This document shows positions 5,431 through 30,098 of a stretch of DNA of 64,000 nt, piece after piece (position 1 is the first letter of the stretch; each line of letters begins with the position of its first letter). Source of the DNA: Myxococcota bacterium (lineage in GTDB: Bacteria; Myxococcota_A; Polyangia; Nannocystales; Nannocystaceae); assembly GCA_039028615.1 (NCBI GenBank), contig JBCCHT010000013.1:160001-224000 (forward strand), in the 5' to 3' direction. A program made the position numbers and the translations under genes. Under the pieces are notes generated by a model. The model was not told the DNA's origin, did not search any database, and worked only from the letters and a program-made list of their open reading frames with translations.

Positions 5431-6039
5431 ATGGACAGCTCGCAGCTGGGCGGTCACCTGCTCGTCGCGGTGCCGCAGCTGCTCGATCCCAACTTCCGTC
5501 GCTCGGTGGTGTTGTTGCTGGAGCACAACGAGGACGGCGCGCTGGGCCTGGTGCTCAACAACCCGCTGCCCAACACCGTGGCTGATGTCGCGCGGGGGCT
5601 CGACCTCCAGTGGGAGGGCGACGAGGAGGCCACGGTACGCCTGGGTGGGCCCGTGGAGCCCATGCGGGGCTGGATCCTCCACGACCAAGCCCAGTGGGAC
5701 TCCACCGCCGACGAGGTGCTGCCCGGCGTCTGGCTCACCACCTCGCTGGAGCCGGTGACCCGAGCCGGCAACCACGTCGTGGGGGCCGAGGGCAGCGAGG
5801 TGCTGTTCCTGCTCGGCTATGCCGGGTGGGCCACCTCCCAGCTCGAGGGCGAGATTGCAGCGGGCAGCTGGATGCCCGTGCCCATCAATACGGCGGGCGA
5901 CCCCACCGGGTACGGCGTTCATCCGCGTTGGGTGTTCGAAGCCGAGCCCGAGGACATGTGGGCCGAAGCGCTGCGGTCCCTCGGCGTCGATCCTGGGCGC
6001 CTCGCCCGCGGCTCCGTCGGCGCGTCGTCGTTCCAGTAG
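5431..6039 (+). CDS. YqgE/AlgH family protein
   Basis: LLVAVPQLLDPNFRRSVVLL, GALGLVLN, GGPV, GYAGW..QLEGE motifs. Confidence 0.92.
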   Translation: MDSSQLGGHLLVAVPQLLDPNFRRSVVLLLEHNEDGALGLVLNNPLPNTVADVARGLDLQWEGDEEATVRLGGPVEPMRGWILHDQAQWDSTADEVLPGVWLTTSLEPVTRAGNHVVGAEGSEVLFLLGYAGWATSQLEGEIAAGSWMPVPINTAGDPTGYGVHPRWVFEAEPEDMWAEALRSLGVDPGRLARGSVGASSFQ

Positions 6040-6215
6040 GTTCGTCGGGGTCGTGCTCTAGGGCGCTCGGCGGAATCGTCGAATCGAGCTTCGATCCCGC
6101 GAGCACGGTCACGCCGGCGAGGGCGCGAGAGTCGAAACATAAGGAATTGCCGACTAGACGCGCTTGGTAGGTATCTGTACGCTCGAACGGGTTCTCTGCC
6201 CGGGGTCGTACCGTG

Positions 6216-7751
6216 ATGCGCCATACAGCTCTGTCCACTTCAGTAGTTTCTCTCCTCGCGTTAGCGAGCGGCACGGCCGTTGCCGCCGAGGTCCCGACGC
6301 ACCCGATCAACCCGGACGCTCCCTGGGCGCTCGAGCTCGAGGACGAGCTGAGCAAGCCGCTGGTCGAGCAGTGGTACGGCAAGCAGGTTCGCCAGGAGTG
6401 GGAAAAGATCGAGCCGCACTGGCAGGGCAACCAGCTGCTGACCCGCGACAGCTTCGACGAGGACATGCTCGAGGGGCTCGACGTCCCGCCCGTGCCGGCC
6501 ATGAACTACGAGGCCGCGCCCGGCGTGGTGTACGTGGCGATGGACGGGGTCACCCTGCGTCCGAACTGCGGCAACGGGGACTCGGCCCACTCGGCGCTCA
6601 ACTGCTCCCCGCTGGTCGACGCCGAGGTCACCTTCGCGCCCTTCGGGGCCCAGGCCGCGGCCGAGTTCCAGCAGCTGCGCAGCTACTACGAGCCCTTCGA
6701 CCTGGTCATGACCAGCTCGCGCCCCCCCGACTGGATTCCGTACACGATGACGGTCATCGGTGGCTCGGCCAACCAGGTGGGCCTGCAGGGCGCCTGCGGT
6801 GTGGCCAACGTGGCTTGTGACGGCCTCAAGCGGAACCACGTGTCGCTCAACTTCCCGCAGTCGTGCAACGGCATGGCCGAGACGGCGGGCCAGGAGACGG
6901 CGCACAACTGGGGCCTCGAGCACACCGACAACCCCAACGACATCCTCTACCCGTTCAACAACGGCGGGAACAAGAGCTTCGTCGACAACTGCATGGACAT
7001 CAGCCACGCCACGGGCGACGGCAACACGGCCTGCGGCTACATCCACGAGCTGTACTGCCCCGCGGGCGCGGGTGAGCAGCAGAACTCCTTCGCCGAGATG
7101 CTCGGCGTGTTCGGTCCGGTCGCGGTGGACGACAGCCCGCCCGAGATCATCTCGGTCTTCCCCGGCGACGGGGCGGTCATCGGCACCGAGGAGGAGTTCA
7201 CCATCACCGCCTCCATCGACGAAAACTCGAACATGGTCGCGGTGAAGTGGACGTGGCTCGAGGGGCTTCCCGAGGGCACCGACGAGTACACCCGCTGCAC
7301 CAACGGCGTGTGCACGACCGACTTCAACCCGGGCGTCAGCTTCACCGCCAGCGAGATCAACTGGGACTTCCTCACCCTGTCCCAGGCCCCGATCGGCACC
7401 TACTCGTTCCAGATCGAGGCGCTCGACGCCTACGGTGGCTACGACAGCCGCACCATCACCATCGAGGTGGTCGAGGGCAGCGGCAGCGTCGGCGGCAACC
7501 AAGAGGGCGGTGGCCTCGACGAGAGCGGGGAAGAAGGCGGAGCGACCGACGGTGACAACCCGGGCGGGACCGCGGCCGAGGATGGCGACGACGGAGCCAC
7601 GGGCCCGACCGTCGGCCTCGACGGCGGCGACGGAGGCGGTGGCGGAAGCACGGGTGGCTGTCGCATCGACGAGCCCGAGCCGACCCGCTGGTCCTGGGCC
7701 GGCCTGCTCGGCCTGGGCGTGCTGCTGATGGGTCGTCGCCGACGCGCCTGA
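6216..7751 (+). CDS. Secreted matrixin-like protein with Ig-like domain and MYXO-CTERM sorting signal
   Basis: Signal peptide; QETAHNWGLEH..DILYP; acidic Gly-rich linker; C-terminal GGC-spacer-hydrophobic helix-RRRRA. Confidence 0.8.
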   Translation: MRHTALSTSVVSLLALASGTAVAAEVPTHPINPDAPWALELEDELSKPLVEQWYGKQVRQEWEKIEPHWQGNQLLTRDSFDEDMLEGLDVPPVPAMNYEAAPGVVYVAMDGVTLRPNCGNGDSAHSALNCSPLVDAEVTFAPFGAQAAAEFQQLRSYYEPFDLVMTSSRPPDWIPYTMTVIGGSANQVGLQGACGVANVACDGLKRNHVSLNFPQSCNGMAETAGQETAHNWGLEHTDNPNDILYPFNNGGNKSFVDNCMDISHATGDGNTACGYIHELYCPAGAGEQQNSFAEMLGVFGPVAVDDSPPEIISVFPGDGAVIGTEEEFTITASIDENSNMVAVKWTWLEGLPEGTDEYTRCTNGVCTTDFNPGVSFTASEINWDFLTLSQAPIGTYSFQIEALDAYGGYDSRTITIEVVEGSGSVGGNQEGGGLDESGEEGGATDGDNPGGTAAEDGDDGATGPTVGLDGGDGGGGGSTGGCRIDEPEPTRWSWAGLLGLGVLLMGRRRRA

Positions 7752-15824: not shown

Positions 15825-17206
15825 ATCTGCACCCGTCTCGCCCGTCGATGAGGGTCCTGCTCGCGCCGCTGTTGGTGGCGGGGCTGGCATGTGGCCCCAG
15901 CACCTACGAGATCGCGGTCTCCGGGTCCTCGGGAGGGCCGCCGACGGCGGGGACCGAGCCGTCTGCGATGAGCACGGGGCCGACCTCGACCACCCGCGGC
16001 GACACGGACCCCTCGGACACGACCGAGACCACCGTGGCCGCCGACTCGGGCAGCAGCGGGGGCGACTGCGTGAGCCAAGACGACGGGGGGTGGTGGCGGA
16101 CCGAGTGGACTCGCCGACGCCTGCTCGAGATCGACACCACGGTCTTCGACGCGGCCGTCACCGACTTGCCCGTGCTGCTCCGGCTCGACTCGGAGGGGCT
16201 CGGCCCCTCGTGGTCGGAGCGATCCGGCGCCGACCTGCGCTTCCGGGCCGAAGGCGACGTCGAGGTGTCCTACGAAATCGACGACGTCGATTCCGACGGG
16301 AACCTGGCGGTGTGGTTGTCGATTTCCGAGCTCGACCCGGCGGCGGGCTCGATGCCGGTCTGGATGTACTACGGCAATCCGCAGGCCGAGGCCCCCGATG
16401 GCGCCGAAGCGGTCTGGAGCGGACACATCAGCGTGCATCACCTGGGCACCGACCTCGAGGACTCGGCCGAGGACCACACCGGTCGCTCCAACTGGGAGCC
16501 GGAGGTCTGCGACGGCAAGTGTGGCCCCCGGATCGGCGTCGCGCGGCGCTTCGACCCCGAGCAGCTGCACGAGGTCATCTTCGACGGCCACCAAGACTAC
16601 GACCTGGGCGTCTCGCCCTACGAGCCCGCGGTCATGGAGTTCACCATCAGCCTGTGGATGCGGGCCGCTTCGCTGGCCGAGTACCCCTGGGGCGGGCTGG
16701 TGGCCAAGGGCGACGACACCTGGCGGCTGCAGGCCAGCAGCTTCCCCGACGCGCCAAAGCTCGACGAGCGCATCACCTTCGGCTACGACTGCAACCCGAT
16801 CCAGACCGCCTGCACGGGGGCGCCGATCGACATGGCCGGCAACGCCAACCTCGTCTCCAACGTCGCGGTCGACGACAACCAATGGCATCACGTCGCCACG
16901 ACCGTCGAGATCATCGACGAGCCGGTGCCGTTGCCCATCGAGTACATCCCCGACGTCCGAATCCGCATCTACATCGATGGGATCGAGGCCGCAACGCCGC
17001 AGGAAGTGTTCGGGTTCCTGCTCCCCGAGGACGATCAACCAGTTCGCCTCGGCCACAACATCAGCGCGGCCAATCGCTGGCAGGGGGACCTCGACGAGGT
17101 CCGCTTCGAGGCCCGGGCCCGCAGCGCGGCCGAGATCGCGGCCGACTACGCCACCGTCGTCAACGAGCACGTGGCCATCGGGGAGGAGGACGTCCTGTGT
17201 CGCTGA
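15821..17206 (+). CDS. DUF2341 + LamG-like jellyroll lipoprotein
   Basis: GLAC lipobox; WW..W..RR.L, DLRF, YEID, WMYYGN (DUF2341); FTISLW, WHHVA, IYIDG, GDLDEVR (LamG). Confidence 0.85.
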   Translation: MNLHPSRPSMRVLLAPLLVAGLACGPSTYEIAVSGSSGGPPTAGTEPSAMSTGPTSTTRGDTDPSDTTETTVAADSGSSGGDCVSQDDGGWWRTEWTRRRLLEIDTTVFDAAVTDLPVLLRLDSEGLGPSWSERSGADLRFRAEGDVEVSYEIDDVDSDGNLAVWLSISELDPAAGSMPVWMYYGNPQAEAPDGAEAVWSGHISVHHLGTDLEDSAEDHTGRSNWEPEVCDGKCGPRIGVARRFDPEQLHEVIFDGHQDYDLGVSPYEPAVMEFTISLWMRAASLAEYPWGGLVAKGDDTWRLQASSFPDAPKLDERITFGYDCNPIQTACTGAPIDMAGNANLVSNVAVDDNQWHHVATTVEIIDEPVPLPIEYIPDVRIRIYIDGIEAATPQEVFGFLLPEDDQPVRLGHNISAANRWQGDLDEVRFEARARSAAEIAADYATVVNEHVAIGEEDVLCR

Positions 17207-18654
17207 GCCACGCGCGCGCGGGCGCGACGTCCTTGCTGCTGCTGGCGCTGGGATGCCCCACGCCCAAGCCCGTGCTCCCCCAGACCGGAGCCGGGGGCAC
17301 GGCCGACACCACCGACTCCGGCGTCGCCTCCTCGTCATCGACGGGGGCGGGGCCCGAGACGAGCGCGGACACGACCTCGACTGGGGCCGTCGACTCGAGC
17401 ACCACGACCGACCCCGACCCGAGCACCACCGGAGGCACCGACGAGACCGGCAGCACCGACGAGTCGTCCTCGAGCGGCGGTCGGCCGGTCTGCGAGCTGC
17501 CGGACATGGGCTGCACCCCCGCCTCGGCCGAGCCGTGGTGGGACGCGGGCTGGGCCTATCGTCGTCGCATCGAGGTCCTCTCACCGCTCGCGGGGCCGCT
17601 CGACGATGCGGTCGTGGCCATCCGCCTGGACGAAGACTTCGAGCTGGCCTGCGCCGAGTTCTCCGATCCGGCCGACGACCTGCGCTTCGTCGACGGGGCG
17701 GGCCAGCTGCTGTCGCACGAGGTCGAGCGCTGGGAGGCAGGGGAGGGCGCGCTCGTATGGGTTCGCCTGCCCACCCTCCAGGCCGGCGCCAATGACGTGT
17801 GGCTCTACTACGGCGGCGACGCGGCTCCGCCCACGGGAGACGTCTGGCCCGCCTCGCTGTCGCTGCACTCGGTCATGCACTTCGCCGATGACCTCGAGGG
17901 CTCCGGGGGCACGCCCGGGGGCGCGCCCAAGGTCGCGGGCGACCTGTTCTTCATCCCCGGCGTCCTCGGATCTTCGATTCACTTCGAGGACATCCTGATC
18001 AACCGCCGGGTCGAACTGACCAACTCCCAGGCCATCGACGATGCGATCATCGCCGCGGGCGAGTTCACCGTCAGCGCCTGGATCCGCCCGTATCCCGACA
18101 TCGCCGCGCCCAGCCCCTTCAAGAACGTCGTTGGCCGAGGCGACGGTACGTGGGCGCTGTCCGTGTTCGATTCCGAGGGTGCCTTCGACTCGCAGCCCCC
18201 GACCGCCACCTCGTTCTTCACCCACTGCGACGGGATTTCCTTCGATCCCACCGAGTGCGACCCCTCGGTCAACTTCAACAGCAACCATCTGTTGGTGGGC
18301 AGCGTGCCCGTGGTCGAGCACCAGGTGCTCGCCAACTGGCACCACGTGGCCGCGGTCTTCCAGGCCGCGGAGGGGGACGTCCATCAAAAGGACCTGTACG
18401 TCGACGGCCAGCTCGACGCCACGTTCACCGGGCTCCTGCCGCTGGAAGCCGCCGTGTTCGAGTCGCACTCCGTGCCGGTCACCATCGGCACCGGGCCCGA
18501 TGATCCCGACCAGGCGATGTTCCACGGTGAAATCGACGAATTCCACCTCGCATCGATCGCGTGGAGCCCCGAGCGGATCGAAGCCGAGTACGAATTGACT
18601 CGAGAGCCCGGCTCGGAGCCTCGCGTGATCCTCTCGGCGACGCAGTGCCAGTAG
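17197..18654 (+). CDS. DUF2341 + LamG-like jellyroll lipoprotein (paralog)
   Basis: LALGC lipobox; WWDAGWAYRRRI, DLRFVD, HEVERW, LYYG; FTVSAW, WHHVA, LYVDG, GEIDE. Confidence 0.85.
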   Translation: MSLSHARAGATSLLLLALGCPTPKPVLPQTGAGGTADTTDSGVASSSSTGAGPETSADTTSTGAVDSSTTTDPDPSTTGGTDETGSTDESSSSGGRPVCELPDMGCTPASAEPWWDAGWAYRRRIEVLSPLAGPLDDAVVAIRLDEDFELACAEFSDPADDLRFVDGAGQLLSHEVERWEAGEGALVWVRLPTLQAGANDVWLYYGGDAAPPTGDVWPASLSLHSVMHFADDLEGSGGTPGGAPKVAGDLFFIPGVLGSSIHFEDILINRRVELTNSQAIDDAIIAAGEFTVSAWIRPYPDIAAPSPFKNVVGRGDGTWALSVFDSEGAFDSQPPTATSFFTHCDGISFDPTECDPSVNFNSNHLLVGSVPVVEHQVLANWHHVAAVFQAAEGDVHQKDLYVDGQLDATFTGLLPLEAAVFESHSVPVTIGTGPDDPDQAMFHGEIDEFHLASIAWSPERIEAEYELTREPGSEPRVILSATQCQ

Positions 18655-18779
18655 CCTGCCTCTGTGTGCCCGTATTCACAGGGCGTCGAACTTTGTCCTA
18701 TTGAACGTGAATACGTTGAAGAGGGGGGCGTCGGGGTATGCACCGAGCTGGGCGTCGCCGGCTCGGCACGAGGTCCCGC

Positions 18780-19463
18780 ATGCCCACTCTTCGATCCTTC
18801 GCCCGTATCAGCTGCGCTGCCGTCCTCGGACTGGCTGCCGCCGCGTGCTCGTACCCCTTCGCCGTGTCTCCCGGACTCGCCGAGAAGACCGAGGAAATCC
18901 CCGTCGTCAAGCTCGACCGCAAGTCGTGGAACGTCGGGGCCTACGAAGTCCGCGAGATTCGGCGAGGATGGGAGAAGTCCGGGGGGATTTCCATCGGCCC
19001 CGTCTCGGGCAATCAGAAGCAGCGCGACTTCTCGTTTCAGGTAAACCACAGCGGCACCATTCTGCAGGTGCGCTGCGAGCTGAGCTCGGGCTCGAGCGCC
19101 ATCGCTGGCTTCACCGTCAGCGACGGCGAGCAGATGACCTGTGACCTCAACCCCTCCGATGCCTCTGCCGCGTGGAAGGTCATCATCGTGGCTCGTGGCA
19201 CCCGCAACGCCTCCGGGCGGCTGCAGCAGGGCGACAACGAGATGCCCATCGTCTCGGCGCACGGCAGCGGCCACAGTCAATCTCGCGGCTATCTCATCCG
19301 CCAGGAGGGTGATGTCGCCGCCGCCGACGTGCGCGTCGCCACCCGTCGCGTATGGGTCCCCAAAGAAGGCGAGACCAGCTTCAAGGTCGCCTACGTCGGG
19401 GCCGCGGTCACCCTCATGCTCTTCGAGGAGCTGGCCGAGTCCTCGAACCCCTCCTCGTCCTGA
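18780..19463 (+). CDS. Hypothetical lipoprotein
   Basis: MPTLRSFARISCAAVLGLAAAAC lipobox; host-like codon usage. Confidence 0.7.
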   Translation: MPTLRSFARISCAAVLGLAAAACSYPFAVSPGLAEKTEEIPVVKLDRKSWNVGAYEVREIRRGWEKSGGISIGPVSGNQKQRDFSFQVNHSGTILQVRCELSSGSSAIAGFTVSDGEQMTCDLNPSDASAAWKVIIVARGTRNASGRLQQGDNEMPIVSAHGSGHSQSRGYLIRQEGDVAAADVRVATRRVWVPKEGETSFKVAYVGAAVTLMLFEELAESSNPSSS

Positions 19464-19472
19464 AATCGCCCC

Positions 19473-21620
19473 TCAGGGAGCGTTGGGCCCCGCGTCGAGG
19501 CGATCGAGCACGAACGCCAGCGTATCGACCTCGGCGTCGATGCGGTCGCCCACGCGGGGCGAGCCACCGTGGCCTGCCCCTCGTTCGATGCGAAGCAGCG
19601 CATCGGCCCCCGCGTGCTGCATCGCCGCCACGTACTTGCGCGCGTGCATCGGGTCCACGCGGTCGTCGTTGTCCGCCGAGAGCATCAGCAGCGCGGGATA
19701 GTGCCTCTGCGGCCGGACCTTGTGCAGCGGCGAGTAGCCCCACAGCCACCCGAACTGCTCCGGATCCTCCGCCGACCCGTACTCTCCGATCCACGTCGGC
19801 CCGCTGCCGAAGCGATGGAAGCGAATCATGTCGAGCAGCGGCACCGCGCACACCACCGCCCCGAACAGCTCGGGTCGCTGAGTCGACACCGCGCCCACCA
19901 GCAGCCCGCCGTTGGAGCCCCCACGAATCGCCAGCCGTGACGCCTGCGTATAGCCCTCGGCCTGCAGGTACTCCGCCGCCGCGATGAAATCGTCGAACGT
20001 GTTCTGCTTGTTCGCCCGTCGCCCTGCGTCGTGCCACGCCTCGCCGTACTCACCTCCGCCGCGCAGGTTGGGCATCGCCCACACCCCGCCGCGGCCGGCC
20101 CACACCGCCGCCGTGGCCGAGAAGCTCGGCTGCAGCGACACCCCGAAGCCCCCGTAGCCCGTCAGTATGGTGGGGCGGTTGCCGTCCAAAACCACATCGT
20201 CGCGATGCAGCACGAACATGCTGACCGGCGTGCCGTCCCGCGACTCCACGCTGACCTGATGAAGCTCGAGGTGCTCGTCGACCGGCACATCGATCGCCTC
20301 CCAGGTCCTCAGCGTCCCGCTGTCCATCGACAGCGACCCCACCTGTGGCGCGCGGTTCATCGCCCCGTGGTGCACGTACACCACATCCGATTCCGCTCGC
20401 CCCGAGATGGCCGAAATGCTGGTGAACCCGTCGAAGTCGACCTCGTGCACCGCGGCCCCGGACAGCTCGCGAATCTCCAGCGAAGAGCTCGCCTTCTTCA
20501 AGTAGCGAAGCAGCAGCCGTCCGCCGAATACCCCGGCCGATTCCAGCGTGCCGTCTTGCTGTGCCACCACCGTTCGCCAGTGCTCCGGGCTCGGTTGGTC
20601 GGGGTCGACCTCGACCACCCGAAACCGGGGCGCATCGTGGTCGGTGAGGACGAAGTAGCGCCCCTCATGGCTCGACACCGACGCCAGCGCATCGTGCCCG
20701 ACGAACAGGGGGCGCCACGGGACCGCCTCGGTCGTTGCCTCGCGCAGATACACATCCGTCGCCGACCACCCGTGCTGCACGTGAAGCGCCCACGTGCGCC
20801 CCTCGTCGAGCGACTCGACCCCGACGAACGTCGCGGCGTCACCCAAGGGCCCGTAGATGACCTCGTCCTGCGACACTGGAGTCCCGAGCACATGAACCCG
20901 AACCTCGGCGTGTCGGGGCAGCTCGGGCGCGGGGATCGACGGGTCATCGGGCAGCCCCGTATACGCAAACGACCGTCCATCGGCCGCCCAAGCCGCTGCC
21001 GCATAGCGTGCCCCCGCGATCCGATCTGCTCGATCACGCCCCGTATCGACCTCTCGAATGCGTAGCTCGGCCGCGTCGGCCCCATCGAAGCTCCGTAGGT
21101 ACGCCACCAGGCGACCATCGGGGCTCGGCACGAACGCACGCACGCTGATTCGACCGTGCGAGTCCAGCTGCAGCGGATCGAGCACGACCCGCTCGCGCCC
21201 GTCGTCCTCCCGCACGTACCACACCGCATGGTCGTGGCCGGCGGAGCGGCGGGCGAAGAACAACCGCGAGCCGCGATGGACGGGCACTGAAATCGAGTCC
21301 ACGTCGATCAGTGCGCGTAGCTGCTGCGCCAGCTGTTGTCGACGGGGGAGTGCGCTCAGGTCGGCTCGGGCATACTGGTCCTGCGCGTCCATCCACGCCT
21401 GGACCTCGGGTTCATCCACCTCCTCGAGCCATCGATAGGGGTCCGCGACGTCGACCCCATGCATTCGGTCGACGACGTTCTCGCGACGGGTGGAGGGGGG
21501 ACCCTGCCTTCGCACTGCGGCGCATTCATCGACCTCCTTGGTCTCGGCCGTGGGGGGCGTGCAGCTGCCGATTCCAGCCAGCATTGCGGTGAGCATGAGG
21601 CATCGATCGGCGGAACTCAT
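19473..21620 (-). CDS. Prolyl oligopeptidase (S9A)
   Basis: DPYRWLE, GYGGF, NLRGGGEYG, GGSNGG (Ser), DDRV (Asp), AGHG (His). Confidence 0.95.
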   Translation of the reverse strand: MSSADRCLMLTAMLAGIGSCTPPTAETKEVDECAAVRRQGPPSTRRENVVDRMHGVDVADPYRWLEEVDEPEVQAWMDAQDQYARADLSALPRRQQLAQQLRALIDVDSISVPVHRGSRLFFARRSAGHDHAVWYVREDDGRERVVLDPLQLDSHGRISVRAFVPSPDGRLVAYLRSFDGADAAELRIREVDTGRDRADRIAGARYAAAAWAADGRSFAYTGLPDDPSIPAPELPRHAEVRVHVLGTPVSQDEVIYGPLGDAATFVGVESLDEGRTWALHVQHGWSATDVYLREATTEAVPWRPLFVGHDALASVSSHEGRYFVLTDHDAPRFRVVEVDPDQPSPEHWRTVVAQQDGTLESAGVFGGRLLLRYLKKASSSLEIRELSGAAVHEVDFDGFTSISAISGRAESDVVYVHHGAMNRAPQVGSLSMDSGTLRTWEAIDVPVDEHLELHQVSVESRDGTPVSMFVLHRDDVVLDGNRPTILTGYGGFGVSLQPSFSATAAVWAGRGGVWAMPNLRGGGEYGEAWHDAGRRANKQNTFDDFIAAAEYLQAEGYTQASRLAIRGGSNGGLLVGAVSTQRPELFGAVVCAVPLLDMIRFHRFGSGPTWIGEYGSAEDPEQFGWLWGYSPLHKVRPQRHYPALLMLSADNDDRVDPMHARKYVAAMQHAGADALLRIERGAGHGGSPRVGDRIDAEVDTLAFVLDRLDAGPNAP

Positions 21621-21827
21621 CGGCGTTAGGGTAGCGGGTCGGGGGGGATTCGTCCTGTTGGTGGGGGGCGAAAACCTTGGGCGAAGGCGGGGCTGGGGAG
21701 CAAATGTGCAGGGCGTAGGGTGTGGTTGCGGGGCGTTTTTTCGCTTAGCGGAGGGGCGAGAATGTTCGGGCAGAGGTGCGAGATTTAGTTTGGCGATGGC
21801 TTGGAATGCTTGGCGAAGGGTCGAGAA

Positions 21828-21981
21828 TGTTCGAACGGGAGGCTTGCCTGTTGACGGCTGGAACCCTCCCCGGACGTGCTCGGCGGCCGTTGCAACTGGG
21901 TGTTTCTCGAAGGTAGTCGGCGGCCGCCTCCGCGCGACCGGGCCCCCTCCATCCTGCGCGGCTTCGCTTCAGCCCTCCCCG
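21828..21981 (+). repeat. 154-bp non-coding repeat, copy 1 (MITE/REP-like; 12-bp inverted repeats at 21829-21840 and 21991-22002)
   Basis: TGTTCGAAC...GCCTGTTGACGGCTGGAACCCTCCCCGG...GGCTTCGCTTCAGCCCTCCCCG; near-identical to copies 2 and 3. Confidence 0.9.
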
Positions 21982-22102
21982 AACTCGAAGTCCCGTTCGA
22001 ACGGTGGTGTGGGTCCTGCTTGGGTGGGGCTGGTTTTACGTGGGGGGTTGAAGAGGTCGGTGCCTGGTGGAGGAGGGGGGACTTGGAGGTGCGCTTGCGG
22101 AG

Positions 22103-22256
22103 TGTTCGAACAGCGGGCTCGCCTGTTGACGGCTGGAACCCTCCCCGGACGTGCTCGGCGGCCGTTGCAACTGGGTGTTTCTCGAAGGTAGTCGGCGGCC
22201 GCCTCCGCGCGACCGGGCCCCCTCCATCCTACTCGGCTTCGCTTCAGCCCTCCCCG
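22103..22256 (+). repeat. 154-bp non-coding repeat, copy 2 (direct)
   Basis: 136-bp core 22121-22256 differs from copy 1 core 21846-21981 at 2 positions. Confidence 0.9.
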
Positions 22257-22424
22257 CGGCACTGGCTCCCGAGCGGGCGGTTGTGTCATGAGGTGCTCGG
22301 GGGGCGTCGTTGAATTTTTGGGGCGTCGTGGGTGGGGAGCCGGTCGGAACTCGGGAATGAGGCAGTTTGGATTGAGACCTCTGCGAGGAGCGCCGGTGTA
22401 GGGGGCGGCGCCGTGCTAACGTCG

Positions 22425-23138
22425 ATGACGGTGGTTGGGATTCGGGATGGGGCGGTGGTCGTGGTGAGCGTCGTTGTTGGGGTGAGTGGGTGCGGGTCCG
22501 AGGGACCACCAAATCTGATGCCGCAGTCGCCTTATTGCGAACCGGAGGAAGTCGTCGTCGAACTCGATGAGCAGACTCCGCTGGCAGTCAGCCCGCGCGA
22601 TGTGCTCGACCGCGTCTCGGGAACGATGGAGGGGGAACTCGTTTGGTCCGGGGGCGGGGAGGGGGTTGAACTCGGGTTGAGTACCGAGGCGTCGACTTCG
22701 CCGATGACGCTCGAGGTCACCTACGAAGGCGGCTCGATGATTTTCCTCGATCAGGAATTGGTCGAGCCGGAAGGGCAGGTCAATGAAGTCGCAGTGACAT
22801 GTCCGGACCGATTGACCATCGAAGTCGTCGTGTCGTTGACCGCATCGGACGGAACATTGGCGGAGGCATGGACCTCATCGCTCATTGTCGACGCCGATCC
22901 CCAAACGGGCGCCCCCTCCGACCCGAGCCTGGCTGTCGACACCCCCTTCGCGTCACTGCACGGGACCCTGTCCGTGACGGAAATCGAACCCGACACCTGG
23001 TCGGTCTCAAACAACCTCCGCATACAGGCGGCCTTCTCCACTGGCAGTTCGTCCGGACATCTCCAAGTCGCCGTAACCGACCCGGAGGGCACCGTACGAC
23101 TAGCAGAACTCGGTTCCTGGCAAACCCTGCCCCCGTGA
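22425..23138 (+). CDS. Hypothetical acidic lipoprotein flanked by inverted repeats
   Basis: VSGC lipobox; 237 aa; many A/T-ending codons compared with neighbours. Confidence 0.7.
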   Translation: MTVVGIRDGAVVVVSVVVGVSGCGSEGPPNLMPQSPYCEPEEVVVELDEQTPLAVSPRDVLDRVSGTMEGELVWSGGGEGVELGLSTEASTSPMTLEVTYEGGSMIFLDQELVEPEGQVNEVAVTCPDRLTIEVVVSLTASDGTLAEAWTSSLIVDADPQTGAPSDPSLAVDTPFASLHGTLSVTEIEPDTWSVSNNLRIQAAFSTGSSSGHLQVAVTDPEGTVRLAELGSWQTLPP

Positions 23139-23294
23139 CAGTGCCCCCAGAGAGCCTCCCCGCGAACTCACCAAGAGCACACTCGCGAAGGCTTCCAGCC
23201 ACGACTCGGAGTAGGCACGCGAGCCCTCCGTTCAACACTCCAACCCACCACCCAACCCACATCCGCACCTCCCCTCGAACGGAAGCCGAAGCCC

Positions 23295-23448
23295 CGGGGA
23301 GGGCTGAAGCGAAGCCGCGTAGGATGGAGGGGGCCCGGTCGCGCGGAGGCGGCCGCCGACTACCTTCGAGAAACACTCGCGTGTCTCGGCCGCCGAGCAC
23401 GTCCGGGGAGGGTTCCAGCCGTCAACAGGCGAGTCTCCCGTTCGAACA
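23295..23448 (-). repeat. 154-bp non-coding repeat, copy 3 (inverted)
   Basis: Reverse complement of copies 1/2; core differences concentrated in one 10-nt block (AGACACGCGA vs TTGCAACTGG). Confidence 0.9.
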
Positions 23449-23642
23449 TCCTCAACCGCTCGCAAAGCACTCCAACCCATCACCCAAGCCAGCCCCGCGC
23501 CTCCCTCCGACCCAAGAGCAGCACCCCGCGAAGGCCTAAAGCAAAGCCACGACGAACAACGACGCCGTTTCCACCTCAAACAGACGAGCCCGTCACTCGA
23601 CCACATTCCACCACGTGCCTCAGCAAGAACCGCCAGCAGACC

Positions 23643-25352
23643 TCAACTCTCGAGCTCCGCCAAAATCCCCTCAACCCGAACCTGCTCCCGCCGCCTCCCC
23701 GGCACCAACTCCAAGTACCGCCGATAGTGCACCCGAGCCTGCTCCGGATTCCCCAGCTCCCGCTCGATATCCCCAAGCAATCGATGCAACTGCCCGAGAT
23801 CCGGCGCCAACGCCAACGCCACCTGAGCCGACCACCGCGCCCGCTCCGGCAACCCCCGCCCCAGCATCACCCGTGCATGGTCAATCGCATCGATCGCCTC
23901 CTGATAGTCCCGATACTCCTCACTGTAGAGCAGCGGATCCGCCGGGAGGTCATCGAGCGGCGCTGAAGGCCCATCGTTGCGCCCCAGCGTGCGGGAAAGG
24001 TCGATCGCCTGAAAGCGCCCCAGCGTCGAGGGCCCCTCGGCCACCCACATGACCATCGCCGTCGCATCGACCACCACCGAGTGCGTCGTGGCCATGTTCT
24101 CGAGCGCGTTGCGATTGCCCAGCCCGAGCTCCTGCTCGCCCTTGCCCCGCCGGTCTCGAAGCACGGCCACCGCCCGGTTCGCGTCGATGGGCTCCCCCGT
24201 GGTCAGCAGCTCCTCGAGCCGGTCGTAGCGATAGCCCGACGAGGTGTAGCGCCGCACCCAGTCGTTCTGCAGGTCGCTCTCGAACGCCTCGTCCACCATG
24301 TGGTCGGTCGCCCAGACGATGTTCTCGTCCTCGCCCCGCACCACACGACGGTTCTCCCGGTCCCGCGGCGCCGCCTCGAGCACCAGCGCCTTGCGCCGCA
24401 TGCCGTCGCCGATGAGCACGATGCCCGAGCTGCGCAGCTCGGCCTCGCGAATGATCTCGACGGCGCGGTCGAGGGTGTCGGCCTGCTCGAGCACGGTGCG
24501 GAGCACCAGGGGCAGGGGAGCGCCTTCCTCGGGCGGATCGTCGGTGCGCGCCGGATCCAAGGCGACGAAGATGCCCCGCGCATTGATCCCGGTGACGACG
24601 CCCATGAGGCCGGACCACCCCACGGAGGCGAAGGGGTAGCGACCGTCGGGATGATGGAAGGTCACCAGGCGGTCGGCCTCGAAGTCGCGGCCGAGGTCGA
24701 AGCTCAGGGTGCGGCCGATGATGAGGTTGCCCGGCTCGCCCGTGGAGGTGCGCTTGGGGGCGGCGGCGAACATCGTGCCACCGAGCAGGACGTCGTCGAG
24801 GCGCTGCCCGAGCCCGTACACGCACTGGTACAGGAACATGCGGTGGTAGCTGCTGATCCGGTCGTCCTCGTCGGCGGGGAGGGCTTCGGCCATGGCGGCC
24901 AGCTCCTGCCGATGTTCTTCGTCGAGGTATCGATCGGCGCCGCGATAGTCCCAGCGCAGCACCATGGCGGCGGTCCATTGTTCGAGCCAGGCGGCGTAGC
25001 GTCGCTCGAGCATGTCGCGGACGCGATCGTCGAGCTGGCGGAAGAGGCGCTCGGTGAGCCGGCCGCGGGCGTCGCCGAGCTCGACCGGCGAGCCCTCGAG
25101 GTGCAGGCGCCACAGGCGTCCGTCGCGGTCGAGCCAGGAGCGGCCGTAGTTGAGGCGGCGACCGGTGGGGTCGACCTCGAACTCGTAGCGCGGGACCTCG
25201 ACCTGAGGGGCTTCGAGCTCGGTGTAGCTGAGGTAGCCGGAGTACGACAACGCGATGAGCACGAACCCGATCCCCACCAACACCGCGGCGGCGCGGAGGA
25301 GGGCGAAGACGGGGCGACCGGCCGCCCGTGGGGTCGAGGAGAATCGCGCCAT
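23643..25352 (-). CDS. C45 family (acyl-CoA:6-APA acyltransferase-like Ntn hydrolase) protein with C-terminal TPR
   Basis: N-terminal TM; LEGSPVELG; IIGRTLSF; SVGWSGLMGVVTGINARG; RYDRLEEL; LGNRNAL..THSVV; TPR tail. Confidence 0.8.
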   Translation of the reverse strand: MARFSSTPRAAGRPVFALLRAAAVLVGIGFVLIALSYSGYLSYTELEAPQVEVPRYEFEVDPTGRRLNYGRSWLDRDGRLWRLHLEGSPVELGDARGRLTERLFRQLDDRVRDMLERRYAAWLEQWTAAMVLRWDYRGADRYLDEEHRQELAAMAEALPADEDDRISSYHRMFLYQCVYGLGQRLDDVLLGGTMFAAAPKRTSTGEPGNLIIGRTLSFDLGRDFEADRLVTFHHPDGRYPFASVGWSGLMGVVTGINARGIFVALDPARTDDPPEEGAPLPLVLRTVLEQADTLDRAVEIIREAELRSSGIVLIGDGMRRKALVLEAAPRDRENRRVVRGEDENIVWATDHMVDEAFESDLQNDWVRRYTSSGYRYDRLEELLTTGEPIDANRAVAVLRDRRGKGEQELGLGNRNALENMATTHSVVVDATAMVMWVAEGPSTLGRFQAIDLSRTLGRNDGPSAPLDDLPADPLLYSEEYRDYQEAIDAIDHARVMLGRGLPERARWSAQVALALAPDLGQLHRLLGDIERELGNPEQARVHYRRYLELVPGRRREQVRVEGILAELES

Positions 25353-25413
25353 GGCGAATGCGGCGGGTATACCTCAGGGTCGAGGACTACCGTATACTCC
25401 GCGCCCGATGCCC

Positions 25414-26109
25414 ATGCGTGCACGCACGATGAGCGGTTGGCTCCTGGCGGGGGCGGTCGTTTGGGGCGTGGCCTGTGAGCCCGAGCGCCCGCCCGCACCC
25501 GAGCGGACTGCGGCTCCCAGCGATCCCAAGGCGGCCCCCGAAGCCGAATCCGAGGCCTTCCTCGAGCCGGGCGCTGCGCCCGCGGTGCTGACCTTTGCGG
25601 GCGACCGCGGGGCCTTCTCCGACAAGGGCAAGGTCGAGGACGTCCCCGAGGAGGCGCGTGGCCTGGTCCGCGTATCGCTGCTCGAGGGACCCCGTGCCCC
25701 GGCGGGCACCGTCTGGGTCACGAACCTGCGCGAGCCCGAAGAGGACGGCCGCTTTCGCCTCCGCACGGTTCCCCGCGACCTGTTCGAAGAGCTGGCGCTG
25801 GGCCAGGGGCGCAGCAGCGAGGTGGCGCTGCCCGAGGGGCTCGAGGCGCCCGAGCAGGTCGCCGTGGCCGACGGGGTCATCGTCTACAAGACGGCGTGGT
25901 GTGGCGTCTGCAAGAAGGTCGAGTCGTACCTGAAGCGCAAGGGCGTCGACTACGAGGCCAAGGACATCGAAAAAGACCGCAGCGCGGCGGCGGAGCTGCA
26001 GGCCAAGGCGAAGACGCAGGGCGTGAAGACGGGCAGCGTGCCCATCATCGACGTGGGCGGTCAGCTCATCGTGGGCTTCGACCGCGCTCGCCTCGAAAAG
26101 CTGCTGTAG
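25414..26109 (+). CDS. Lipoprotein with C-terminal glutaredoxin (NrdH-like) domain
   Basis: GVAC lipobox; VYKTAWCGVCKK, SVPIIDVGG..IVGFD; start approximate. Confidence 0.85.
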   Translation: MRARTMSGWLLAGAVVWGVACEPERPPAPERTAAPSDPKAAPEAESEAFLEPGAAPAVLTFAGDRGAFSDKGKVEDVPEEARGLVRVSLLEGPRAPAGTVWVTNLREPEEDGRFRLRTVPRDLFEELALGQGRSSEVALPEGLEAPEQVAVADGVIVYKTAWCGVCKKVESYLKRKGVDYEAKDIEKDRSAAAELQAKAKTQGVKTGSVPIIDVGGQLIVGFDRARLEKLL

Positions 26110-26119
26110 GCCCAACAAA

Positions 26120-26154
26120 AATCTCCCACGCCGTCGGACGCGGCGCGGGAGATT
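26120..26154. terminator. Hairpin between convergent glutaredoxin and dsbD-like genes
   Basis: AATCTCCCACGCCG / CGGCGCGGGAGATT stem, preceded by A-run (T-tract on minus strand). Confidence 0.6.
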
Positions 26155-26181
26155 GAGCGAGCAGAGGCCGAGTGTGGCCGG

Positions 26182-27501
26182 CTACTCGATGGGATCGACC
26201 TGCTCGAGGAAGACCTCGGCGTCGACGAAGGTCTTGAAGTGCACGGGCGCGGCGGGCATGGCCTCGCCCTCGCGCAGGGCCTCGAAGTGGCCGCTGAGCT
26301 TTACGTCCTTGGGGTAGACGAGCACGCTGGGCAGGGTGGCGCTACCAAAGGCATCTTGCATGGTGCCGTGGTCGTCGGTGCCCTCGGTGACGTCGACCTT
26401 GATGAGGTGGAAGCGCGTGGAGAGGATGGGCTCGACCGCCTCGTCGTGGAAGGTGGCCAGCTCCATCTCTTTGCAGGGCAGGCACCAGCTGGCGGCAAAG
26501 TCGATGAGGATGGGCTTGCCGTCGGTCTCGGCCTGCTGGATCTGGGTCTCGAGCTCGGCGATGGTGGTGACCCGGTTCCAGTCGGCGGGCGGCACGTAGA
26601 CGAGGTTGTTGACCGCGACGATCGAGCCGAAGACGGTGAGCGCCACCGCGATGGCCTTGCGGAAGCGTTCGCCCGCGGGGCCGTGGAAGGACAGGTGAAT
26701 GGCACCCAGGCCCACGCCCGCGAGCACGACGGTGAGCGCGACCCAGAAGCCCCAGCTGGGGTCGAGGATGAAGTTCTCGAGCGCGGTCGACAGCGGACGC
26801 AGGAACCACAGCGCCATGACGATGAGCATCACGCCGAAGAAACTCTTGATGTACTCCATCCACGCGCCCGGGCGGAACAGGCTCGCGCCCAGGGCCACCG
26901 CGAAGAACAGGGTGCCCATGCCCAGCGCGTAGACGAACAGCAGCGAGCCGCCGTAGAAGATGCCGCTGCCCTCGGCCGAGGCCTTGGCGATGACGGCCAG
27001 CAGCGACAGCAGCACGGGCCCGGTGCAGGGCGCCGAGATGAAGCCGGAGACCAAGCCCATCAAGAACGCACCCAAGGGCCCGGTACCCCCCACCGAGTTG
27101 AGCTTGCCCTGAATGCTGGTGGGCAGCTGCAGGTCGAAGGCGCCGAACATGCTCGCGGACAGGGCCACGAGCAACAGGGCGATGGGCACGACGACGTAGG
27201 GGTTGGCCAGCCACGCTCCGAAGGCGCCACCCGTCAGTGCGACGACGATGCCGAGCGAGGTGTACAGCGTGGCCATGCCCAGCACGTAGGACGTGGCGAG
27301 AAACAGCGCGCGCGCCCGCGGGACGTTCTCGGCCCCGAACACGGCGACGGTGACGGGGATGAGCGGAAAGACGCAGGGCGTCAGGTCGACGAGCACGCCA
27401 TAGGCAAAAGCCCAGGCGTAGGCCCCCAAGCCGCCGCCCGCGAAGTCGGGTTCCATCGAGGCGAGAAGACCGGGGAGGGAGAGGCTGCTGAGCAATTCCA
27501 T
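26182..27501 (-). CDS. DsbD/CcdA-type thiol:disulfide interchange protein (TM domain + thioredoxin domain)
   Basis: LTPCVFPLIP and APCTGP TM cysteines; DFAASWCLPCKEM. Confidence 0.9.
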   Translation of the reverse strand: MELLSSLSLPGLLASMEPDFAGGGLGAYAWAFAYGVLVDLTPCVFPLIPVTVAVFGAENVPRARALFLATSYVLGMATLYTSLGIVVALTGGAFGAWLANPYVVVPIALLLVALSASMFGAFDLQLPTSIQGKLNSVGGTGPLGAFLMGLVSGFISAPCTGPVLLSLLAVIAKASAEGSGIFYGGSLLFVYALGMGTLFFAVALGASLFRPGAWMEYIKSFFGVMLIVMALWFLRPLSTALENFILDPSWGFWVALTVVLAGVGLGAIHLSFHGPAGERFRKAIAVALTVFGSIVAVNNLVYVPPADWNRVTTIAELETQIQQAETDGKPILIDFAASWCLPCKEMELATFHDEAVEPILSTRFHLIKVDVTEGTDDHGTMQDAFGSATLPSVLVYPKDVKLSGHFEALREGEAMPAAPVHFKTFVDAEVFLEQVDPIE

Positions 27502-27579
27502 GGGGGGCCAGTGCGTGCGAAAGACGGCTTCGATGGAGTCAACGGGATGAGGTGGCGGATCGTTAGCCCTGCGCGGAAC

Positions 27580-29433
27580 TCACGGAGCAGAAGCTCCCAC
27601 ACAATGGCCGGCGTCCTGCAACTCCGCAAGATCTCTCGCGGATAGCGCACCACAGCAGGTGTCGTCGTCGAGGGTCCGGATCATCTCGTCGAGCAGGGCC
27701 CGAGGGAGCCCATGACAGCATGCGGGGCGCAGATCCTCGCGGCAAATGGGCATGACCTGGCAGCGGCCCTCGTGAGGGTCCAGGCAGGCCACACGCAGCG
27801 AGGGATTGAGATCCGTGTAGTCCAGGACGGTATCGGTGCCGGCCAGCAGCGCTGTGCCCAGGAGGCCATCGGGCTCGAGCGCGCTGGGATTGACGTCCCG
27901 GCGCAGGGCGAGCACGAGCGGGTGGTCGGCGGGCATGATCGTGGTGGGAATCCACCGAGCGGGGCGCGGCCCGGACGCGTTCGGCTGAAGAGTTCCCTCA
28001 CCGAGGACGGCCAGCGAGGTGCCGCTGGGGTCGTTGGCGTGATTTTCGCCGTCATCGTCGTCGCGCTGCGAGGAGTAGGGCGGCGAGGTGGTGCGGATGT
28101 CGTCGCCGCCGCTGCTGGCGGCCCGCGTGTATCGAACGCACTGGAGGGCGAGGGCGTCGCGGCGATCCTGGGCGCGCAGGCAGGGTTCGTCGGCTTGGCT
28201 CCGGGTGGCCCCTGGCACCAGGGCGAGGCTCCGCACCCGCAGCCGCGTGAGCGGGGTGTCTTCGCCGGCCGAGGGCCAGCCGGCGAAGTGCAGCACGCCA
28301 TCGTCGGTGCCGATGCGACAGACCCGAAGCTCGCTGTCGACCTCGGTCAATGGACTCAAGGTCTCGGGGCACTCCTCGAGGGTGCTGGGGTCGCCGAACA
28401 TTCGGGTCGCGCTGTCGGAGAAAAGCACGAGCCCGGGCACGCCCGTGGCCACCACGAGGCTGGCCGACTCACCGCCGAGCGTGGGGTCGGTGGCGTCGGT
28501 GCAGACCTCCGAGATGGCCGCCTCCGGCCCGCTCCGTAGGCCGCAACGACCCGCACCAAAGGGGTCGTCGGTCGAGGGGGCATAGGCCAGACCGCACGGG
28601 GGAATCGCGACGCAGGCGTCCATCACCATGCGCGAGCTCTGCAGGGGAATCTCGTTGGCGCTGGTGCTGAAGTCGAAACCGTCGACTTCGCACTCGCCTT
28701 CGTCGACCAGGCATCGATCGGTGAGCTCTCGGCCGAGCAAGCTGCCGGGAAACTGCAAGGGGAGGAAGGCGCGGCCCTGGTCGGCCAAGATGGCTTCGCT
28801 GCCCGGAAACTCGGTGTACAGCGTGACCGTGGCCGGGTCTTCGTCGGGGCGCGGCGGCACGGGCGTTCGAATGGCGACGGCAAAGTTGCGCAGCAGGTTG
28901 CCGCCCATGATCCCGCCGGGCTCGACCGTCTGCCGTTGGTTGCCTGCCGTCCACGACCAGCCTTCCTGATCGGGGGCGCGCACCAGCGGCAAATTGCGGA
29001 AGCGAAACCGCGTCACCGCGGCCGCTCGGTCCTCGTCGCTGACGTCCTCGGCGAGCAGGCGGGCGGCGGGGCGCACCTCGAGGCAGTCGGCGGCTTCGAT
29101 GCGCGAGCCGGTGGCGTCGGGATCACGAATGGCGCTGAGGGTGGCGAGCGAGTCCACCAGCATCATCTGGCAGGCGCGATCGCCCGAGGCGTCGCAGCCC
29201 CCGGAGAGTCCCGAGCACCCGTCGTCCACGAAGGCGAGGCGGGGCAGGGGAGACTGGTCGCCCGAGGCCAAGGCCATGGCGCGACCAAACTCGCCTTCGG
29301 TTTCGATCGGGTCGGCACCGCAGCCGAGCGCGAGCGTGGCGAGCAGGCTCGGGCCGAGCACGCGTCGCCACGGCCTGAATCTCAGGCCGTGGATCGACTC
29401 GGCCTCGGGCCGGGGGCTTGCTGCTGCCCGCAC
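27580..29433 (-). CDS. Cys-rich lipoprotein with two degenerate retropepsin-like lobes
   Basis: LALGC lipobox; MLVDSLA...GIMGGNLLRNF and LVVATGVP...DGLLGTALL; start approximate. Confidence 0.6.
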   Translation of the reverse strand: MRAAASPRPEAESIHGLRFRPWRRVLGPSLLATLALGCGADPIETEGEFGRAMALASGDQSPLPRLAFVDDGCSGLSGGCDASGDRACQMMLVDSLATLSAIRDPDATGSRIEAADCLEVRPAARLLAEDVSDEDRAAAVTRFRFRNLPLVRAPDQEGWSWTAGNQRQTVEPGGIMGGNLLRNFAVAIRTPVPPRPDEDPATVTLYTEFPGSEAILADQGRAFLPLQFPGSLLGRELTDRCLVDEGECEVDGFDFSTSANEIPLQSSRMVMDACVAIPPCGLAYAPSTDDPFGAGRCGLRSGPEAAISEVCTDATDPTLGGESASLVVATGVPGLVLFSDSATRMFGDPSTLEECPETLSPLTEVDSELRVCRIGTDDGVLHFAGWPSAGEDTPLTRLRVRSLALVPGATRSQADEPCLRAQDRRDALALQCVRYTRAASSGGDDIRTTSPPYSSQRDDDDGENHANDPSGTSLAVLGEGTLQPNASGPRPARWIPTTIMPADHPLVLALRRDVNPSALEPDGLLGTALLAGTDTVLDYTDLNPSLRVACLDPHEGRCQVMPICREDLRPACCHGLPRALLDEMIRTLDDDTCCGALSARDLAELQDAGHCVGASAP

Positions 29434-29489
29434 GTGGCGATGGTAGCAGCCCCTGGCGCGAGGCCGGAGGAGGAGCAAACGAGGCGGTC

Positions 29490-30098
29490 TCAGCCTTCGT
29501 CGGCGTCGAGGTCAGCGAGCTTCTTGTTCAGGGTGGTGATGACTTCGTCCATCCCGCCCTTTTTGTACAGCTTGTTGATCTCGTACTTGTAGTTCTTCGC
29601 GAGGCTGACGCCCTCGGTGATGATGTCGCGCACGTGCCAGTGGCCGTCGACCTTGTGCATCACGTAGTCGATCTCGACGACTTTGACCTCACCTTGCTTG
29701 TCGGTGAAGGTGACGCGGGTGTCGACCTTGGTGGCTTTTTTGCGGACGTGCTCTTCGATGTACTCGACCTTGCCGCGATCCTTGGCGTCGATGCGCTTGA
29801 GGTAGTTCTTGCGGATCAGCTGGGTGAGCAGGGCCTTGAACTCGTCGCAGCGCTCGGCGCAGCGCTCGTCGTACTTCTTGGGGCCGCCCAGCGCGGCCTT
29901 GGCGATCCAGTCGTAGTCGAGCAATCCATCGACCTTGGCCTGGACGGCGGAGCTGTCGGCGTTGGCGTCGACCAGGGTCGTGACCTCGCCGTGGGAAGTC
30001 TCGAAGGCCTGGAGCGCGCCCGCGCCACCTTCGGCCAGAGCGATGGAGGGCATCAGCAGCGCGCAGCTGAGGGAAAGAGCGGCGATGGTCTTGCGCAT
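29490..30098 (-). CDS. MlaC/Ttg2D family lipid-binding periplasmic protein
   Basis: Signal peptide; LDYDWIAKAALG, IDYVM...WHVRDIITEGVSLAKNYKYE. Confidence 0.88.
   Translation of the reverse strand: MRKTIAALSLSCALLMPSIALAEGGAGALQAFETSHGEVTTLVDANADSSAVQAKVDGLLDYDWIAKAALGGPKKYDERCAERCDEFKALLTQLIRKNYLKRIDAKDRGKVEYIEEHVRKKATKVDTRVTFTDKQGEVKVVEIDYVMHKVDGHWHVRDIITEGVSLAKNYKYEINKLYKKGGMDEVITTLNKKLADLDADEG

Follow-up and report, generated by a model that had tools for sequence, protein, structure and literature searches.

The DNA analysed here is a window of 64,000 nucleotides (nt) from a Myxococcota bacterium of the family Nannocystaceae (assembly GCA_039028615.1, contig JBCCHT010000013.1, positions 160,001 to 224,000), and the element of interest is a hairpin repeat of about 150 nt around which the base composition of one DNA strand is strongly shifted. 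The genome that holds the window (G000; 12.3 Mb, 94 contigs) has a marine metagenome source, and its assembly is 96.7% complete, with many repeat arrays coinciding with contig breaks. Gene content and related loci suggest that it is a myxobacterium of the Nannocystis group. The gene order is a prolyl oligopeptidase gene, two plus-oriented repeat copies, an enclosed open reading frame (ORF) called cargo below, one minus-oriented copy and a C45-family gene. All four zones of skewed composition, two near halos and two outer reversed zones, are visible in the window. The features are:

21825..21981, plus strand: family A repeat, copy 1
22100..22256, plus strand: family A repeat, copy 2, in tandem with copy 1 at a period of 275 nt
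23295..23451, minus strand: family A repeat, copy 3, convergent partner of copies 1 and 2
21300..22750, plus strand: near halo of copies 1 and 2; plus strand C-poor and G/T-rich
22800..24250, minus strand: near halo belonging to copy 3; C-poor and G/T-rich on the minus strand
18900..21250: left outer reversed zone, plus-strand four-fold G-C residual -0.25 to -0.52
24600..25200: right outer reversed zone, plus-strand four-fold G-C residual +0.34 to +0.46
22332..23138, plus strand: cargo ORF of 268 amino acids, start possibly at 22425; G/T-rich start, C/A-rich end
23643..25352, minus strand: C45-family acyltransferase/hydrolase with a TPR tail; last ~130 codons recoded from C to T or G
19473..21620, minus strand: prolyl oligopeptidase gene, mostly inside the outer reversed zone

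The base counts given in a preliminary description of this DNA for 22021-22080 (35 G, 5 C, 14 T, 6 A) and 23641-23700 (33 C, 7 G, 11 A, 9 T) were recounted and are exact. Keto skew (G+T-C-A, scored in 100-nt windows) peaks at +0.56 (22001-22100), +0.52 (22401-22500) and -0.46 (23601-23700). The genome-wide standard deviation is 0.115 and scores of at least 0.4 and at least 0.5 occur in 0.23% and 0.055% of windows, respectively; the skewed windows of the locus fall in the outermost 0.05-0.2% of the genome. Over 21480-24100 the GC and TA skews have mean absolute values of 0.25 and 0.22 and are correlated (r 0.72). The sign switches inside the enclosed ORF, as had been described, at about 22750-22800, and this is explained by the overlap of two opposing halos, since single copies keep their sign downstream for about 1.6 kb. 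Contigs of run X1 are identical (0 differences) over 17000-21875, 22203-23320 and 23404-29000; as this run possibly derives from the source sample, the agreement excludes an assembler error and nothing more. Elsewhere in the window, 29400-29999 has a plus-strand four-fold G-C residual of +0.3 to +0.6 with a strong T excess in a repeat-free vicinity, possibly the mark of a highly expressed gene.

The cargo ORF is lipoprotein-like by inspection and has no match to Pfam or NCBIfam models; homologs with 23-40% identity occur in 19 of 36 genomes of the same family. In the congener G004 the peptidase gene follows the C45 stop codon almost at once, and this empty site indicates that the block of about 2 kb found here is an insertion into an intergenic site, although the G004 sequence is too diverged for a target-site duplication to be read from it. 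Another locus of G000 (G000:C18:62484-63875) encloses a cargo gene that is macro-like/SEFIR-like by inspection.

An initial profile search of G000 gave 102 matches, and searching other skewed segments revealed further families, with 78 (A), 24 (A2), 20 (B) and 16 (C) matches in addition to three short repeats beside a RAYT-like gene. Leaving out the latter and one weak C match, the set used below comprises 137 matches to four related families of interrupted hairpins of about 150 nt, distributed over 66 loci. The fold of families A and A2 is a single long hairpin with interruptions, and its apical loop varies. Both sides change in a compensatory manner in 7 of 24 hairpin pairs, most of the covariation reflecting the single split between A and A2. 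Two T.G wobble pairs, which form only on the G/T strand, are nearly invariant (23/23 and 22/23 sequences), and 109 of 110 full copies across the four families share a loose motif at the base. The earlier statement that the repeat core stays conserved holds for the paired parts; the apical loop and flanks vary among copies. Rfam gave no match over 21400-24200 at E values up to 5. Outside G000 the covariance model detects the repeat in 9 of 72 genomes of the same family, three of them weakly. Scans with sequence patterns gave 0 and 3 loci in a genome collection, 1 in metagenomes, 8 matches attributed to chance among viral sequences and 0 of 400 in a sample of the phylum. One family A array (G000:C18:300-450) lies just 3' of gyrB, about 7 kb from dnaA.

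The preliminary description predicted orientation-dependent skew around other copies, and would have been contradicted by its absence. Such skew is general: the repeat strand is keto-rich in the 150 nt upstream of 82 of the 85 copies tested. Mean upstream keto skew is 0.43 beside the repeat and declines to zero at ~650 nt. In the last 300 nt of 50 genes that end at a repeat, C and G make up 0.30 and 0.58 of four-fold sites, as compared to 0.51 and 0.39 at 6543 control gene ends, and A at two-fold sites near repeats is reduced about two-fold. Where a gene is coded on the other strand, its composition moves in the reverse sense; a tmcA-like gene has third-position C of 0.83 and G of 0.04 (orthologs 0.42 and 0.47). 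For family C the near halo is not clear at four-fold sites (6-8 loci), and the non-coding flanks are mostly skewed. Halo strength is equal on both replichore strands (0.234, n=38; 0.238, n=36; 10 copies ambiguous). The halo shares its keto signature with the chromosomal replication skew (standard deviation 0.069) at 7-9 times its amplitude and with the same coupling of G-C to T-A (r 0.93); on contig C18 the strand leading away from dnaA is mostly G-rich (7/9 bins).

The position of the repeats could suggest a transcriptional origin, with R-loops at a 3'-UTR hairpin exposing the non-template strand, or with selection for C-poor RNA that avoids Rho. Indeed, 70 of 90 outermost copies come after a gene in its sense direction, and the G/T strand would be RNA-like, with G.U pairs. 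The upstream halo is nevertheless as strong with the neighbouring gene pointing away from the repeat (19/20) as with it pointing toward the repeat (68/70). Moreover, opposite-strand genes turn C-rich, so that the C-losing strand is the template there, and the ordinary 3' ends of the 6543 control genes show nothing of the kind. A transcriptional cause is thus very improbable, and the R-loops considered in the preliminary description are unsupported, as the halo is independent of gene direction. The halo follows the orientation of the repeat and neither replichore nor host-gene direction.

Of the 66 loci, 31 are convergent, 34 have one orientation (19 of them at contig edges) and one has a divergent junction. 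Convergent arrays with G/T to the left and C/A to the right are what 5'-to-3' resection of a central break is expected to leave. This pattern, together with cargo that differs at each locus and the finding that the nearest relative of a copy sits in the same locus for 24 of 41 pairs, could point to recombination or break repair at hotspots of cargo exchange, where resected 3' tails are exposed and the repeats mark or end resection in a Chi-like manner that depends on orientation. Single copies, however, have the same sign on both sides, with 13 of 14 loci agreeing at 300-800 nt downstream, which indicates that a break is not centred on the repeat and that a partner is not needed. We consider resection an unlikely source of the halo.

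Beyond the near halo lies a second feature, overlooked in the preliminary description: an outer zone of opposite sign. Upstream four-fold G-C residuals to 600 nt are +0.47, +0.43, +0.33 and +0.13; the sign reverses at ~650 nt, and a weaker opposite zone with residuals of -0.19 to -0.12 at 800-2500 nt reaches to ~3 kb (control -0.02, about 1300-1500 anchors). Negative values were found at 58 of 71 loci at 800-1000 nt and at 65 of 79 loci at 1300-1600 nt. The origin-like sign change, and the coupling shared with chromosomal skew, would suit a hairpin at which a helicase or primosome is loaded onto one particular strand, with short tracts of local re-replication or repair starting nearby and producing an intense local replication skew. 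Such a site would make a dedicated enzyme unnecessary, and the searches described below found none. Yet the sign changes some way off the repeat, no such change was seen in G004, unrelated short repeats around RAYT-like genes give the same footprint, and the spread of the repeat would be left unexplained. A loading site therefore appears a rather improbable cause.

Comparison with orthologs shows that the halo reflects directional substitution. The recoded codons quoted earlier from the 3' end of the C45 gene are present. Only 6 of its last 79 codons end in C, as compared to 28-36 of the last 80 in five congeners, in which the downstream DNA is without such skew; absence of the repeat there was judged from sequence and skew rather than with the repeat model. 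A like codon shift in orthologs lacking the repeat would have contradicted the preliminary description, and it is not present. The 5' part of the gene had been described as using C-ending codons typical of the window. It does use C-ending codons, but these are not typical: third-position C (0.64) exceeds that of orthologs (0.55), in accordance with its position in the opposite-sign outer zone. The polarised spectrum was pooled over C45, pntB, gyrB and trpS, the last adjoining a RAYT locus, with sites within 450 nt of a repeat classed as near. Ancestral four-fold C was lost at 41 of 48 near sites (replaced by G at 32, T at 7 and A at 2) and 43 of 214 far sites, ancestral two-fold C (C>T) at 31/52 near and 11/225 far, and G>A changes occurred at 0/48 near and 9/144 far. 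The difference in C loss is significant (Fisher p about 1e-17, four genes only). By our arithmetic the acceleration is roughly 8- to 18-fold, which is a lower bound as the insertions are younger than the split. Synonymous differences in C45 are 0.60 near and 0.37 far; for the peptidase 5' end a near signal is not clear (40 codons, 2 orthologs). A sequence-context test of the flanks revealed no APOBEC-like or CT-specific target, and a tree-based rate matrix on the repeat copies gave no decisive signal.

Amino-acid differences near and far are 0.12 and 0.13 (C45), 0.16 and 0.11 (pntB), and 0.50 and 0.43 (tmcA-like). Divergence near repeats is thus about background or slightly higher, which lends no support to the local diversification mechanism suggested earlier, and the mostly synonymous nature of the change is attributed to purifying selection that keeps the proteins. 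The proposal that substitutions near the repeat arise by a local process that is directional, confined to one strand and anchored on it is in turn borne out by the orthologs and by the 82 copies. The phenomenon is a directional mutation bias with a small effect on proteins, and its anchoring on the repeat is very probable.

In the congener G004, halos are strong to either side of the repeats (7/7 loci at 300-1000 nt upstream), with other genes nearby. The halo is weak in G002 and little or none is seen in G001. Location of many copies at contig ends and the atypical codon use of cargo might raise the suspicion of an assembly artefact or of a chance composition of foreign cargo. This is refuted by the ortholog comparisons, in which the vertically inherited gyrB, pntB, trpS and C45 are recoded; independent contigs agree and a second species shows the halo with other genes, so that the probability of this explanation is negligible.

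A search for an enzyme that acts on the repeat led to two RAYT-like HUH genes in G000 (G000:C13:40521-41393, locus L002, and G000:C8:231440-232276, L127), 67% identical, with visible HUH and tyrosine motifs in both proteins. Each is enclosed by its own short convergent repeats, unrelated to the long hairpins. All four flanks of these two loci have a near halo (+0.54 to +0.95), two with a clear reversed zone, and trpS beside the L002 gene shows strong recoding, with C at third positions at 0.11 (vs 0.56). An all-vs-all comparison of 2608 ORFs lying up to 2.5 kb from repeats in G000 revealed no recurring protein family that could supply the enzyme, and the same question put to 40 regions of relatives had a negative answer. 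Searches for reverse transcriptases, IS91-type enzymes, tyrosine recombinases and TnpB revealed no enzyme beside repeats. PF01797 (IS200/IS605 TnpA) detected only a RAYT-like gene, PF04986 (Y2) had no match in G000 and matches without repeats in G002 and G004, and PF07282 (TnpB) had none in 5 genomes. The one reverse transcriptase found, a retron-like gene, lies ~37 kb away from the nearest repeat, and the repeat model has no match in its locus.

Two candidates from G002 were rejected. A small ORF, for a ~105-amino-acid protein without known family, is matched 12 times in G002, in most cases no more than about 1 kb from an A2 repeat (L064:3618-4226 and 6008-6616; L101-L116; also beside a repeat in L100), and has no match in G000. 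Genes for Rpn/YhgA-like nucleases and their detached repetitive tails cluster by A2 repeats in G002 (L064:2284-3540; L261:9589-10680); the three such genes of G000 are not near repeats. An Atlas search gave no usable match. Further observations are an A2 copy centred in a long inverted duplication that includes the small ORF (L064:4200-6050), IS91-type Y2 genes that are compact and occur singly, by a MATE-like transporter at a site conserved between G002 and G004 (L160, L161), and, by inspection, an inverted repeat upstream and a WGR-like ORF downstream of the reverse transcriptase gene at the retron-like locus (L001, G000:C16:158387-162022).

Our best overall explanation, a tentative one with slightly less than even odds, is a non-autonomous REPIN-like hairpin element with repeat-anchored strand bias that is triggered by an HUH enzyme. 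The G/T-rich strand would fold into the long interrupted hairpin. Observed around each copy is a loss of C (to T and G), together with some loss of A, on the repeat strand, beginning ~650 nt upstream and extending to 1-2 kb downstream. A hairpin-recognising protein may repeatedly open, nick or displace this strand, which would then stay single-stranded for longer, undergo cytosine and adenine deamination and be resynthesised; the strong G/C preference of the genome could cause a large part of the lost C to end up as G. The hairpin strand is likely to be exposed or resynthesised, given the T.G pairs on the C-losing strand and the replication-like signature, and nick-initiated resynthesis, already considered in the preliminary description, is plausible. 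As trigger, the best single guess, a fairly speculative one, is a trans-acting RAYT-like HUH nickase that might also spread the repeat; the matching footprint at the two RAYT-like loci speaks for it, and nicks scattered over a few hundred bases upstream might account for the origin-like sign change.

Several observations weigh against this explanation. Four-fold C>G changes (32) exceed C>T (7) and are not the direct product of deamination alone, CT is not depleted in the flanks (observed/expected 0.99 vs 0.85), and G>A is not in excess in the outer zone, which was not seen in the seven G004 loci examined. The folding energy of the hairpin does not stand out (z -0.23 to +1.9), and strand preference by energy is weak. 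The RAYT-like proteins score 33-36 bits, below the NF047646 cut-off of 80, and the long hairpin is found near neither RAYT gene of G000 nor 29 RAYT loci of relatives, which themselves show the polarity weakly (left positive 15/23, right negative 17/27). No RAYT was found in G004 (88% complete) despite its repeats and halos. Finally, the homologous repeats of G083, G084 and G077 have little or no halo; copies in these genomes are more alike (median 0.97 vs 0.91-0.93), suggesting that the repeats there may be younger or without the factor.

Repeat-anchored skew halos were not described in the literature searched (few subscription journals, supplements excluded); the halo is real, general in this genome and undescribed in that literature. 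Among known phenomena, strand-coordinated mutation clusters in persistent single-stranded DNA and replication-strand skew likewise involve loss of C and A on one exposed strand and a sign that switches at origins or breaks. The change described here differs from both in being germ-line fixed, at more than 60 defined sites and independent of replichore, and no deaminase or break site was identified for it. Diversity-generating retroelements likewise combine a cis element with local sequence change; here the change is C-directed instead of A-to-N and without a template repeat. Retron multicopy single-stranded DNA-like repeats of Nannocystis, a member of the same bacterial family, appear among the reference titles of PMC6868368. 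Assignment to either group was rejected, as the reverse transcriptase locus is without a repeat-model match and the change is not A-directed. An integron attC array was rejected as well, the arrays being convergent instead of direct and the repeat model silent in 30 tyrosine-recombinase loci. The same applies to IS200/IS605 or IS91 ends, for which no matching TnpA/TnpB or Y2 transposase was found.

Repetitive extragenic palindromic (REP) sequences measure 20-40 nt, compared to ~150 nt for the repeat described here. No consensus of the repeat families contains the conserved GTAG 5' of the stem, unlike REP, and no cognate RAYT flanked by the same long repeat was found, both RAYT-like genes being flanked by other short repeats. 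A likeness to REP and REPIN systems is that these two genes of G000 lie between convergent repeats with the same halo. In the portions available of the articles on REP, bacterial interspersed mosaic elements (BIME) and REPIN, shared features are high-copy hairpins that are intergenic, strand-specific and arranged in tandem and in inverted pairs, amplification at individual loci, and arrays bracketing cargo, while a mutation halo is not mentioned for REP/REPIN-RAYT systems (PMC3333891, PMC8266576, PMC6006769, PMC5581495). The E. coli TnpA-REP protein cleaves single-stranded DNA to either side of a BIME, spanning more than 400 nt (PMC3333891), an activity in keeping with the nickase guessed at above.

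[quoted passage not shown] GRINS feature duplicated stretches over 500 bp under gene conversion, mainly in polyketide synthase genes. The recoded genes here are, by contrast, single-copy, and the skew takes its anchor and its direction from a short non-coding hairpin and is graded by distance from it. Compared with the GRINS duplication criterion (>500 bp, >80% identity), the longest non-self match is 519 nt at 77% identity and consists of tandem repeat units. The locus is GRINS-like in composition and outside the GRINS definition. Bacterial mutation bias is usually ascribed to replication and transcription; a short cis element here overrides both and rewrites core-gene codons over hundreds of bases at more than 60 loci, so that analyses of codon bias, synonymous divergence and gene calling near such repeats would be distorted. 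In a broader and more doubtful reading, the hairpin and a trans-acting single-strand nuclease or helicase might form a cis-targeted, orientation-specific mutator that raises C loss on one strand roughly 8- to 18-fold within 1-2 kb. It would recode core genes and reshape cargo genes captured between convergent arrays, and it might represent an anchored form of the process behind GRINS-type skews across bacteria. For intense local skew, the origin of which was left open for GRINS, an anchor, direction, length scale and spectrum are now supplied, and this origin becomes testable with a 150-nt cassette.

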